The notes under the pieces were generated by a model. It saw nothing but the letters and a program-made list of their open reading frames with translations, was not told the origin of the DNA and did not search any database. The translations under genes were made by a program, and so were the position numbers. This document shows positions 5,568 through 6,074 of a stretch of 15,568 bases of DNA, piece by piece. The stretch comes from a virus, in the UHGV virus genome UHGV-0473420; one strand, 5' to 3'. Positions within the stretch are counted from its first letter, which is position 1; every line of letters begins with the position of its first letter.

Positions 5568-6074
5568 TTGAGTATTTTCAATAAACACGCACACCAGGAA
5601 CGTCCGTACATCGTCATAGTAGATATTGATGGGACGATATCAGAGGCAACGGAAGACAGGCTGCATTTACTTCCACCACCTGGCAAAGGTGCATTAACAG
5701 AGCACTGGAACGAGTTTAACCTTGCCTGTGACACTGATGCTCCCATCACTCCAGTTATTGATATGGTGCGCCAGTTGTCCGGCATTTACACCCTCTGGTT
5801 TGTAACCGGGCGCTGTGAGATAGCCAGGGATAAAACACGAGCCTGGCTGCGGAAGTATGTAACAAACGGGGCTGAGCCTTTGCTATCTATGCGTCCTGCC
5901 ACCGATGACAGAAATGACGGCCCAGCAAAGATTGATCTCCTTAAGAAAATTGGTCTAAGTAAAATCGCGTTCGCGCTGGAAGATAAGATTGAAGTGGCGC
6001 GTGTTTTCAGGAGTCACGGCGTACTTACGTTAATGGTCAGGGAGTATGAAAACGCGCTTCTCCATCAACAATAA
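5568..6074 (+). CDS. HAD-superfamily phosphatase (polynucleotide 3'-phosphatase / nucleotidase-like)
   Basis: TTG start preceded by GAGGAGG. HAD motif I IVIVDIDGTIS (DxDGT), motif II WFVTGR, downstream K and LEDK acidic motif; resembles the phosphatase domain of T4 Pnkp-type enzymes as recalled. No kinase P-loop present. Confidence 0.65.
   Translation: MSIFNKHAHQERPYIVIVDIDGTISEATEDRLHLLPPPGKGALTEHWNEFNLACDTDAPITPVIDMVRQLSGIYTLWFVTGRCEIARDKTRAWLRKYVTNGAEPLLSMRPATDDRNDGPAKIDLLKKIGLSKIAFALEDKIEVARVFRSHGVLTLMVREYENALLHQQ

Follow-up and report, generated by a model that had tools for sequence, protein, structure and literature searches.

The pap gene of P1-family phage-plasmids is predicted to encode a kinase-less phosphatase of the Pnkp phosphatase family

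The open reading frame at positions 5568..6074 (+ strand) of the 15,568-nt stretch of viral DNA analyzed here (the window) is the long-annotated, already known pap gene of P1-family phage-plasmids. Its 168-residue product, Pap, reads as a stand-alone DxDxT (HAD) phosphatase, and profile comparisons place it solidly in the phosphatase family of polynucleotide kinase-phosphatase (Pnkp). The window is a P1/P7/RCS47-like phage-plasmid, and its pap is 97-99% identical, in DNA and in protein, to the annotated pap of RCS47, JL22, P7 and P1. The coding sequence spans 507 nt including the TAA stop, as does the pap CDS annotated in P1 and P7, and opens with a TTG codon at 5568, the only codon ahead of the first beta-strand and motif I at which translation could begin. 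Length, start codon, the pmgS gene upstream, the terminator upstream of pap and the C1 operator OpmgT at the stop codon are all shared with P1, P7 and RCS47. The proteins differ by few substitutions, for example S71/G72/I73/L76 of the window replacing F/N/V/V, and S149 replacing R. Similarity to P1 ends about 250 nt past pap, the downstream region resembling P7/RCS47 instead. In the 2004 P1 record (GenBank AF234172, AAQ14064) the product is named 'putative P1 acid phosphatase', and the RefSeq/PGAP label '3'-phosphatase' is carried by hundreds of plasmid records. The initial annotation did not identify the reading frame as this known P1/P7 gene. The outcome is a correct re-discovery of an ordinary annotated accessory gene and changes little.

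Family placement of Pap

In a Pfam scan, Pap matched PF25109 (HAD_PNKP) with 43.3 bits against a gathering cut-off of 27.6 (E 5.2e-11), an annotation that is also precomputed for all full-length Pap homologues. No sugar-phosphatase or FCP/NIF family was significant in the same scan. The resemblance to the 3'-phosphatase half of Pnkp, proposed in the initial annotation, is thus borne out by HMM assignment, the protein landing in PF25109 and not in a sugar-phosphatase or unrelated HAD subfamily. A scan of NCBIfam returned zero families, even at E 1, and the phrog_415 profile matched Pap at E 1.2e-55. Searching the PDB with the single Pap sequence yielded marginal matches only (Pnkp1 at 0.0075 and a spurious de novo TIM barrel). 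This search was superseded by a family profile built from 124 relatives. The profile matched Pnkp1 (4xrp, 4.6e-27) and the phosphatase of T4 Pnkp (5uj0, 2.4e-23; 1ltq, 2.8e-22), with class C acid phosphatase a distant next family at 7e-5. Direct alignment of the Pap family with the T4 phosphatase domain by hhalign gave 99.6% probability (E 5e-24). AlphaFold modelling with a 10-sequence alignment was unusable (pLDDT 61) and was repeated with 124 sequences. By sequence profile as well as by fold, the structures nearest to Pap are the solved phosphatase domains of Pnkp. The family is large, its profile being matched by 8134 clusters (50% identity clustering).

Bacterial acid phosphatases of class B/C, the source of the name 'P1 acid phosphatase', were rejected, as Pap scores 12.6 bits for PF03767 against a cut-off of 27. 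A secreted or lipoprotein acid phosphatase was likewise rejected, the N-terminus (MSIFNKHAHQERPY) being without a hydrophobic signal sequence. PADLOC defence models gave zero matches for Pap and five other ORFs of the window.

Active-site residues and architecture

A stand-alone HAD phosphatase with DIDGT, TGR and acidic motifs had been noted initially, and these motifs can indeed be read from the sequence. All four HAD motifs are present, with a DxDx(T/V) motif I, T80 in motif II, K121 as motif III and E138-D139 in motif IV, on a Rossmann-like alpha/beta core fold. Motif I (D19-I-D21-G-T23; 5622..5636, + strand, aa 19-23) aligns with D165/D167 of T4 Pnkp, and D19, D21, G22 and T23 are conserved in at least 90% of the 124 relatives. 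Motif II (T80-G81-R82; 5805..5813, +, aa 80-82) is the counterpart of T4 S211-G212-R213, of which Ser211 contacts the phosphate (PMC3592404). Motif III (K121; 5928..5930, +) corresponds to T4 K258 and is invariant in the 124-sequence family alignment. Motif IV (E138-D139-K140; 5979..5987, +) corresponds to T4 D277-D278-R279, with D139 invariant. The acidic pair E138-D139 occupies nt 5979-5984, and a further acidic stretch, DDRND, lies at aa 113-117.

Catalytic roles have been described for T4 D165, D167, S211, K258 and D278 (PMC3592404). By homology, Pap would be a small cytoplasmic, Mg2+-dependent phosphomonoesterase of the DxDxT (HAD) type, a member of the Pnkp phosphatase family without the 5'-kinase domain. 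Asp19 is the predicted nucleophile, attacking the substrate phosphate to form an aspartyl-phosphate intermediate, and Asp21 the predicted general acid/base. The phosphate would be held by Thr80 and Lys121, and Mg2+ by its putative ligand Asp139, probably together with Glu138. The alignments equate T4 D165 with D19 of Pap, D167 with D21, R176 with R31, D187 with D57, S211 with T80, R213 with R82, R246 with R109, D254 with D117, K258 with K121, D277 with E138, D278 with D139 and R279 with K140. In T4 Pnkp, R176, D187, R213, D254 and D277 are reportedly needed for 3'-phosphatase activity, a site formed by R246/R279 is said to have been proposed to bind the penultimate phosphodiester, and the variants S211T and D277E reportedly stay active. 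Every T4 residue cited as catalytic or reported to be required has a counterpart in Pap, and the catalytic residues are all intact in the window protein and in homologues at 57-79% identity.

Neither a kinase P-loop nor a nearby ligase had been seen initially, an observation that holds over the whole window. A Walker A motif ([AG]x4GK[ST]) is absent from all six-frame ORFs of at least 40 aa across the 15,568 nt. Searches for ligase motifs and families across the 15.5 kb came up empty; the one KxDG is a chance occurrence at the Ppp C-terminus. A bifunctional Pnkp of the T4 PseT type was rejected, as Pap has 168 residues, no P-loop domain and no partner RNA ligase in the window. Since there is no Walker A motif in the protein or in the window, the labels 'polynucleotide kinase' and '5'-polynucleotide kinase' are wrong for Pap.

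T4 Pnkp (PseT; PDB 1ltq, 5uj0, 2ia5) carries an N-terminal P-loop kinase domain that Pap lacks, and Pnkp1 of the Capnocytophaga gingivalis Pnkp1-Rnl6-Hen1 RNA repair system (PDB 4xrp, 4xru) is a kinase-phosphatase fusion inside a ligase/Hen1 complex. Pap differs from both by an extra segment after motif I (aa 33-53, HLLPPPGKGALTEHWNEFNLA; 5664..5726, +). It lies at the HAD C1 cap position and falls on gaps in the alignments with 4xrp, 5uj0 and 1ltq, the gap in T4 Pnkp and Pnkp1 measuring 11-15 residues depending on the alignment. The distance from motif I to motif II is 61 residues in Pap, compared with 46 in T4 Pnkp and Pnkp1. The segment is present in the rest of the Pap subfamily, including T5 Dmp and some kinase-fused members, among them AAA_33 kinase fusions in both domain orders. 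Hence, the W-x2-F insertion at this position was rejected as a marker of kinase-less proteins, since it also occurs in the kinase-fused P0113, P0130, P0149 and P0117. The C-termini differ as well, REYENALLHQQ in Pap versus QVASGDF in T4 Pnkp; the last 10-12 residues of Pap are unlike T4 and the family consensus and have low pLDDT. The C-terminal region of T4 Pnkp is said to be the phosphatase dimer interface, needed for activity.

Candidate substrates and roles

Our preferred reading, held tentatively, is that Pap acts as a 3'-specific phosphatase on nucleic-acid ends or 3'-dNMPs. Its targets would be deoxy- or ribonucleotides esterified with phosphate at the 3' position, like those of the phosphatase domain of T4 Pnkp: DNA or RNA breaks ending in a 3'-phosphate or 2',3'-cyclic phosphate, and/or 3'-dNMPs. 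Removal of the 3' block would leave a 3'-OH on which polymerases, 3'-5' exonucleases and ligases of host or phage could act. The AAA_33 kinase fusions of the subfamily and some gene neighborhoods argue for action on nucleic-acid ends. Environmental relatives adjoin genes for RNA ligase, RlaP, cREC_REC and DNA ligase, and in a P1-like element whose pap homologue is 58% identical, an Rv2179c-like 3'-5' exonuclease gene lies between pmgS and pap, two genes upstream of the latter. Against a 3'-end substrate stand the sole biochemically characterized member of phrog_415, T5 Dmp, which is a 5'-dNMP phosphatase, and the nearest non-P1 relatives by phmmer score (KpS4, 89 bits; K1ind2, 84; T1, 79; 35-41% identity), which adjoin dNMP kinases and not RNA-repair genes. 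Literature searches found no published enzymology for Pap or for stand-alone members of its immediate clade. The analogy with tRNA repair in T4, drawn initially, found no support, as there is no kinase or ligase here and the closest relatives of known context neighbor dNMP kinases. Sealing of breaks in the manner of T4 could not be completed by the phage alone, because no polynucleotide kinase or RNA ligase is present in P1 and the window. The host ligase RtcB needs a 3'-phosphate, and removal of that phosphate would antagonize it.

The relatives of T1-like phages (Drexlerviridae), Kagunavirus and some Yersinia phages are, like Pap, stand-alone phrog_415 phosphatases of similar length with the same insertion, mislabelled 'polynucleotide kinase'. 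Unlike pap, their genes sit in a conserved triad of a phrog_704 metallophosphoesterase 'exonuclease', the phosphatase and a phrog_139 dNMP kinase; neither partner is encoded in the window. The phosphatase comes after the 'exonuclease' in relatives from T1, Webervirus and Kagunavirus, and two of the four genomes examined couple it translationally to the dNMP kinase. The T1 neighbor, for which a PDB search gave no match, is called a dNMP kinase from its PHROG assignment (phrog_139).

Such contexts suit the main rival reading, which is possible but, in our judgment, not the likely one, namely that Pap is a Dmp-like deoxynucleoside 5'-monophosphatase that acts on dNMPs or on a modified or signalling nucleotide and so reshapes the nucleotide pool. 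T5 Dmp is an experimentally established dNMP phosphatase and anti-Kongming factor (bioRxiv 10.1101/2024.12.20.629578), countering Kongming by destroying dAMP. A Dmp-like Pap might likewise deprive a host defence of its nucleotide trigger or precursor. Dmps co-occur with phage dNMP kinases, and the KpS4, K1ind2 and T1 genes lie directly upstream of phrog_139 kinases. A dCMP deaminase neighbor also favors this reading. In Krischvirus a stand-alone copy directly follows nrdB, in a genome that also holds a complete Pnkp and RnlA, and a further relative carries a fused MazZ-like dATP/dGTP diphosphohydrolase domain; the nrdB-adjacent copy and the fusion point to nucleotide-pool roles. T5 Dmp matches across the whole phrog_415 profile at 3.6e-57, close to the value for Pap. 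Because it shares this PHROG with Pap, the hydrolysis of nucleotides, an option raised initially, stays live. Both are stand-alone phage enzymes with an HR motif after motif I, an insertion at the cap position and an AC-x-x-D motif, and the Pap family aligns with T5 Dmp by hhalign at 87% probability (E 4e-6). Pap is in addition weakly similar to the class B/C acid-phosphatase family (Pfam Acid_phosphat_B).

Nevertheless, the similarity to T5 Dmp is remote, the Pap family being far nearer to the T4 Pnkp phosphatase (E 5e-24, against 4e-6). T5 Dmp was not reported by a phmmer search with Pap that allowed E up to 10 and returned matches down to Pnkp1 (20.9 bits), and it is missing among the best 50 viral structure matches. 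It is also longer (244 aa) and has no Pfam HAD_PNKP match at E <0.01. To our knowledge, P1 neither encodes a dNMP kinase nor breaks the host chromosome down to dNMPs. The window, too, lacks a dNMP kinase gene, so a rationale linked to such a kinase does not apply. A 5'-dNMPase coupled to a dNMP kinase, as the co-translation in T1-type relatives would entail, would run a futile cycle, from which we infer that 3' specificity is to be favored. T5 separates its dNMP phosphatase and dNMP kinase in time; Dmp is there a pre-early product of a virulent phage that degrades host DNA, with 5'-dNMPs as substrate (bioRxiv 10.1101/2024.12.20.629578).

It is unlikely that Pap serves temperate phage-plasmids as a kinase-less counter-defence or salvage enzyme, by end healing or by nucleotide removal. 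In the former case, host toxin or defence nucleases would leave 2',3'-cyclic or 3'-phosphate ends for Pap, possibly with the nearby lambda-type phosphatase Ppp, to remove, and host enzymes would then complete repair or degradation. In the latter, Pap would resemble T5 Dmp and destroy the trigger or precursor nucleotide of a nucleotide-sensing immunity such as Kongming. If either were true, the large phrog_415 family labelled 'polynucleotide kinase' would represent widespread, unrecognized phage anti-defence phosphatases. Two other groups of phage phosphatases were compared and rejected as models for Pap. Those that counter RES/NAD+ defence are Macro-domain ADPR-1''-phosphate phosphatases, unrelated to HAD (bioRxiv 10.64898/2026.01.28.702374), and the dTMP phosphatases of dU-DNA phages are described not as Pnkp-type but as deoxyribonucleotidase-like (PDB 1Z4K, nucleotidase family) or as hydrolases of the HD family (PMC12697855).

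We regard as quite improbable a non-nucleotide substrate, whether a phospho-sugar or phospho-protein intermediate tied to the glycosyltransferase-like genes pmgO/pmgP/pmgQ or, for a protein phosphatase working alongside Ppp, another protein. Among the upstream genes, two do specify MptE-like/DUF115 paralogues, one a PHROG 'glycosyltransferase' and one a lambda-type Ser/Thr phosphatase; a divergent P1-like element preserves their order. HAD enzymes are promiscuous towards their substrates, and in structure T4 Pnkp is a relative of the protein phosphatase Fcp1 (PMC3592404). However, pap and pmgO-pmgQ belong to different units bounded by C1 operators, and homologues in T1-like, Webervirus, Kagunavirus, Krischvirus, Yersinia and environmental phages never adjoin pmgO-pmgQ-type genes but lie next to nucleic-acid or nucleotide enzymes. 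The Pfam and NCBIfam results for Pap argue against such a substrate as well. A role in the modification pathway encoded upstream, suggested initially, consequently finds no backing in gene organization.

Expression unit, selection and annotation

As the last gene of the C1-repressed pmgR-pmgS-pap unit, pap should be made once C1 repression lifts. The upstream boundary of the unit is the C1 operator pair OpmgRa/OpmgRb at the PpmgR promoter (3933..3998), annotated in P1 and P7. At the other end, the operator OpmgT (Op88 of P1; 6074..6090, +), also annotated in both phages, overlaps the final base of the pap stop codon and marks the start of the next C1-controlled unit. It fits 16 of 17 positions of the searched pattern, which we take to be the C1 operator consensus; four sites of this pattern occur in the window versus 0.08 expected by chance. 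Downstream of the pmgS stop (5495) and ahead of the pap start, a consensus scan revealed an intrinsic-terminator-like hairpin with an 11-bp stem and a T7 tract (5515..5549, +), with an RNA folding energy of -18.5 kcal/mol (z -2.9). P1 and P7 carry the identical terminator, and Cronobacter phage JK004 retains it with substitutions in both stem arms; the hairpin probably attenuates read-through into pap. A Shine-Dalgarno sequence, GAGGAGGG (5557..5564, +), conserved in P1 and P7, ends 3 nt upstream of the TTG. Judging from this anatomy, the conserved terminator and the TTG start probably hold pap output low.

The gene is under purifying selection. dN/dS is 0.08-0.20 between the pap genes of the window, P1 and P7, and 0.12 against the 58%-identical homologue, a pair in which dS is saturated. 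Among the 697 plasmid records with a match, 625 (~90%) hold full-length pap (at least 80% coverage). According to the literature, P1 pap is non-essential, with no plaque phenotype on CRISPRi knock-down or knock-out; Pap is an accessory function, dispensable for laboratory plaque formation. Decay of pap, as a passenger that no longer has a function in the window element, is the least probable reading we considered: it would agree with this dispensability, with the ~10% of matching plasmid records and many clusters in which pap is truncated, with phrog_36358, which covers the N-terminal 111 aa only, and with the position behind a terminator and the TTG start, but it is opposed by the low dN/dS, the intact catalytic residues, the retention of full-length pap and the conservation of both terminator and Shine-Dalgarno sequence, including the substitutions on both stem arms.

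The placement of Pap bears on the annotation of its relatives. The kinase part of the labels 'polynucleotide kinase' and '3'-phosphatase, 5'-polynucleotide kinase' is wrong for phrog_415, a family of ~150-170-aa proteins with more than 1100 phage records and ~700 plasmid records. Furthermore, phrog_415 lumps relatives of the 3'-end-healing T4 Pnkp with T5 Dmp, a 5'-dNMP phosphatase with an anti-defence function. Its members occur in at least two distinct contexts, the triads of exonuclease, phosphatase and dNMP kinase, and neighborhoods with RNA ligase and polynucleotide kinase, the latter belonging to more distant relatives of Pap. P1 is genetically tractable, and pap knock-outs already exist.

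The pap gene and its expression in a P1-family phage-plasmid

The region surrounding pap (window 5000-6600) matched 19 phage records at 95-99% DNA identity (JL22, RCS47, P7, SJ46, P1 and others) as well as 961 plasmid records, mainly of Escherichia coli. The gene order pmgL/M, pmgN/O/P, ppp, pmgQ, pmgR, pmgS, pap and a C1 operator is common to the window and the annotated P1 and P7 genomes. Thus, the window is a piece of a P1-family phage-plasmid. Similarity to P1 stops approximately 250 nt 3' of pap, the region beyond being P7/RCS47-like.

The pap ORF (5568-6074, plus strand) encodes 168 aa from a TTG codon, the sole start that retains the first beta-strand and motif I of the protein. 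A Shine-Dalgarno sequence, GAGGAGGG, was read directly on the same strand 3 nt 5' of this TTG, and both the P1 and the P7 record carry this 507-nt CDS under the name pap. Public records already include the gene with its "3'-phosphatase" label and recognise it as a HAD protein, and the finding of pap is in itself ordinary.

Operators of the repressor C1 are located at PpmgR (3933-3949 and 3982-3998), and the operator OpmgT (6074-6090) overlaps the last base of the pap stop codon. Between pmgS (stop at 5495) and pap, a strong intrinsic terminator was found on the plus strand (5515-5549), in which a T7 tract follows a GC-rich hairpin of 11 bp; it folds with -18.5 kcal/mol (z-score -2.9). This terminator, which is not among the features listed in the P1 and P7 records, ends only 18 nt 5' of the pap start. 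Its hairpin has the same sequence in P1 and P7 and is retained, with substitutions in both stem arms, in the Cronobacter phage JK004 (Pap identity 72%). The combination of this terminator with a TTG start suggests that pap expression is deliberately low, and we infer that pap is the last gene of the pmgR-pmgS unit, repressed by C1 and expressed weakly. In a P1vir RNA-seq preprint, pap was grouped with pmgS in the response to hfq deletion.

The pap gene is a genuine gene under selection. The dN/dS ratio was 0.20 between the window and P1, 0.15 between the window and P7, and 0.08 between P1 and P7; a comparison with a homologue of 58% identity gave 0.12, synonymous sites being saturated in that pair. 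The motif residues are all retained in the 57-79%-identical Pap homologues of other P1-like elements. A copy with at least 80% coverage was present in 625 of the 697 plasmid records with a match, about 10% being truncated, a pattern that fits a useful but dispensable gene. P1 pap proved non-essential in CRISPRi as well as in single-gene knock-out experiments (PMC10695390; PMC9024508). Some of the truncated plasmid copies are interrupted by IS903B (NZ_CP139810.1). A separate PHROG, phrog_36358 (113 aa), apparently comprises N-terminal Pap fragments, and truncated forms also occur among the clusters P0010-P0025 from the homologue searches.

Resemblance of Pap to the phosphatase domain of Pnkp

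The HAD motifs named in the initial annotation were located in Pap as DIDGT (aa 19-23), TGR (aa 80-82) and E138-D139, with K121 in addition. Its observation that a kinase P-loop and a ligase are missing nearby also holds: no ORF of at least 40 aa in the window contains a Walker A motif, and a KxDG scan of the window returned a single match, at the end of the lambda-type Ser/Thr phosphatase Ppp, that was judged to be chance. The proposed resemblance to the Pnkp phosphatase was borne out by the HMM assignment, which placed Pap in Pfam PF25109, "Polynucleotide kinase PNKP phosphatase domain" (43.3 bits, cut-off 27.6), and in no sugar-phosphatase or unrelated HAD subfamily. The class B acid phosphatase family of Pfam reached 12.6 bits, below its cut-off of 27, and NCBIfam contained no model matching Pap.

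A Pap-family profile search of 1.84 billion representatives yielded 8134 clusters with E-values up to 1e-3, the best 150 of which are mostly stand-alone proteins of 142-200 aa. When a profile built from 124 of these relatives was searched against the PDB, the top matches were Pnkp1 (4xrp, 4.6e-27) and the T4 Pnkp phosphatase (5uj0, 2.4e-23; 1ltq, 2.8e-22), followed by class C acid phosphatase as the next family (7e-5). According to the alignment, T4 Pnkp residues D165, D167, R176, D187, S211, R213, R246, D254, K258, D277, D278 and R279 are equivalent to Pap D19, D21, R31, D57, T80, R82, R109, D117, K121, E138, D139 and K140, respectively. Zhu and co-workers are said to have found in 2007 that the T4 Pnkp variants S211T and D277E keep activity, and the sulfate held by R246 and R279 reportedly mimics the penultimate phosphodiester. 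In T4 Pnkp, D165 is the nucleophile and D167 the acid/base, S211 and K258 contact the phosphate and D278 binds Mg2+ (PMC3592404).

Unlike T4 Pnkp, Pap has no kinase domain, and its C-terminus is divergent. Compared with both T4 Pnkp and Pnkp1, it carries an extra cap-position segment within aa 33-53, opposite an alignment-dependent gap of 11-15 residues in the two enzymes. The insertion was rejected as a mark of kinase-less forms, since kinase-fused relatives of both domain orders carry it.

Two roles considered in the initial annotation fared less well. T4-style tRNA repair cannot be completed in the window because kinase and ligase are absent. A role in the modification pathway encoded upstream has no support: pmgO, pmgP and pmgQ lie in a different C1-bounded unit from pap and genes of this type were never found beside Pap homologues in the other phages examined. 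PADLOC gave no support for Pap as a member of a defence system.

Relatives of Pap and its possible substrate

Experiments have verified the T5 dmp product (L036:124-858, minus strand) as an anti-Kongming factor and deoxynucleoside 5'-monophosphatase (bioRxiv 10.1101/2024.12.20.629578). Over its full length it belongs to phrog_415, the PHROG that also includes P1 Pap. This family mixes Pnkp-like and Dmp-like enzymes. Its label "polynucleotide kinase" has been passed to many of more than 1100 matching phage records, for proteins of about 150 aa that have no kinase domain, and is a misnomer. In four phage groups a phrog_704 metallophosphoesterase ("DNA repair exonuclease"), a HAD phosphatase and a phrog_139 dNMP kinase are encoded in succession as a conserved module, often translationally coupled: T1 (L003 3944-5530), K1ind2 (L005 2865-5031), KpS4 (L037 1347-3579) and Yersinia phage vB_YenM_534 (L038 1237-3529). 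T1 is an exception in that the exonuclease gene is absent at this position and an HNH endonuclease gene lies between phosphatase and kinase. The misnomer, the Pnkp/Dmp mixture and this triad are of modest use for annotation and for the choice of experiments.

Pap may be a 3'-specific phosphatase acting on 3'-phosphate ends and/or 3'-dNMPs, a reading that we prefer tentatively on comparative grounds. Its closest characterised homologues are the phosphatase domains of T4 Pnkp and Pnkp1, AAA_33 kinase fusions occur among its relatives, and environmental relatives adjoin RNA ligases, RlaP, cREC_REC, DNA ligase and Pnk, all of which point towards nucleic-acid 3' ends. The same direction is indicated by a divergent P1-like contig (Logan SRR27421428; L006 5135-6489), in which pmgS and the pap homologue are separated by a gene for an Rv2179c-like 3'-5' exo(ribo)nuclease (Pfam, 3e-50) and by a 101-aa ORF, whose end shares base 6001 with the start of the homologue.

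A Dmp-like 5'-nucleotidase comes next and is less probable; several observations point towards nucleotides. The whole phrog_415 profile is matched by T5 Dmp at 3.6e-57 and by Pap at 1.2e-55, hhalign gave 87% probability (E 4e-6) between the Pap family and Dmp, and both share an HR motif, the insertion and an AC-x-x-D motif. The nearest non-P1 relatives by phmmer, from KpS4 (89 bits), K1ind2 (84) and T1 (79), all belong to the dNMP kinase triad. In Krischvirus JEP8 (L004 2856-4489) a stand-alone Pap-like phosphatase gene overlaps the nrdB 3' end by 4 nt despite a complete Pnkp and RnlA in the same genome, which also speaks for a role of the stand-alone form apart from that of Pnkp. P0066 (267 aa), a fusion of HAD_PNKP with dGTP_diPhyd_N (MazZ-like dATP/dGTP diphosphohydrolase), connects these phosphatases with editing of the nucleotide pool. 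However, by the same method the T4 phosphatase comes out about 18 orders of magnitude nearer to the Pap family than Dmp does, and a 5'-dNMPase co-translated with a dNMP kinase would amount to a futile cycle, T5 separating Dmp and its dNMP kinase, DNK, in time. P1 is not known to encode a dNMP kinase or to degrade the host chromosome. For these reasons 3'-specific activity is favored; other substrates, or loss of function, share the probability that remains.

Further features of the window

Ppp (2541-3233, plus strand) matched Metallophos at 1e-15 and also the metallophosphoesterase part of phrog_8238 ("RNA ligase") at 1.7e-12. In principle, cyclic-phosphate ends could be processed by Ppp and Pap in successive steps. 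Both pmgO (1373-2035) and pmgP (1933-2559), on the plus strand, gave sub-threshold MptE-like/DUF115 matches, and the PHROG labels are "alpha-2,3-sialyltransferase" for pmgO and "glycosyltransferase" for pmgQ (3230-3931, plus strand). The three genes, annotated in P1 only as "putative morphogenetic function" and without plaque phenotype when knocked out, form an apparent glycosylation module.

Just 3' of pap, a terminator-like hairpin with a T-run lies on the minus strand (6123-6145), with no convincing minus-strand gene on its right side. The hairpin overlaps a small plus-strand ORF (6125-6259; 44 aa if started at ATG 6125, about 28 aa if started at ATG 6174), whose C-terminal half is hydrophobic and membrane-like; the Salmonella phage SJ46 record gives "membrane protein" under the same match. 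Two Ead/Ea22-like proteins (7983-8603 and 8901-9569, plus strand; Pfam 1.7e-24 and 7.5e-31) occupy the region that replaces P1 pmgT-pmgV, as in P7 and RCS47.

Three consecutive plus-strand ORFs (10083-10478, 10688-11137 and 11345-12283) have a similar N-terminal segment ending in ...A(L/S)LE(A/V)EP(V/I)...; an AMLQGKG C-terminus is common to the first two, and a DUF551 domain closes the third, which looks like modular shuffling in the variable accessory region. Finally, the plus-strand ORFs at 14017-14382 and 14382-14687, for which Pfam gave no match, are tandem paralogues with a coiled-coil-like N-terminus and a conserved, zinc-ribbon-like C-terminus (W/F-C-x-DH-x-x-W-x-DELD-x-SFPYF...CP-x-CR).
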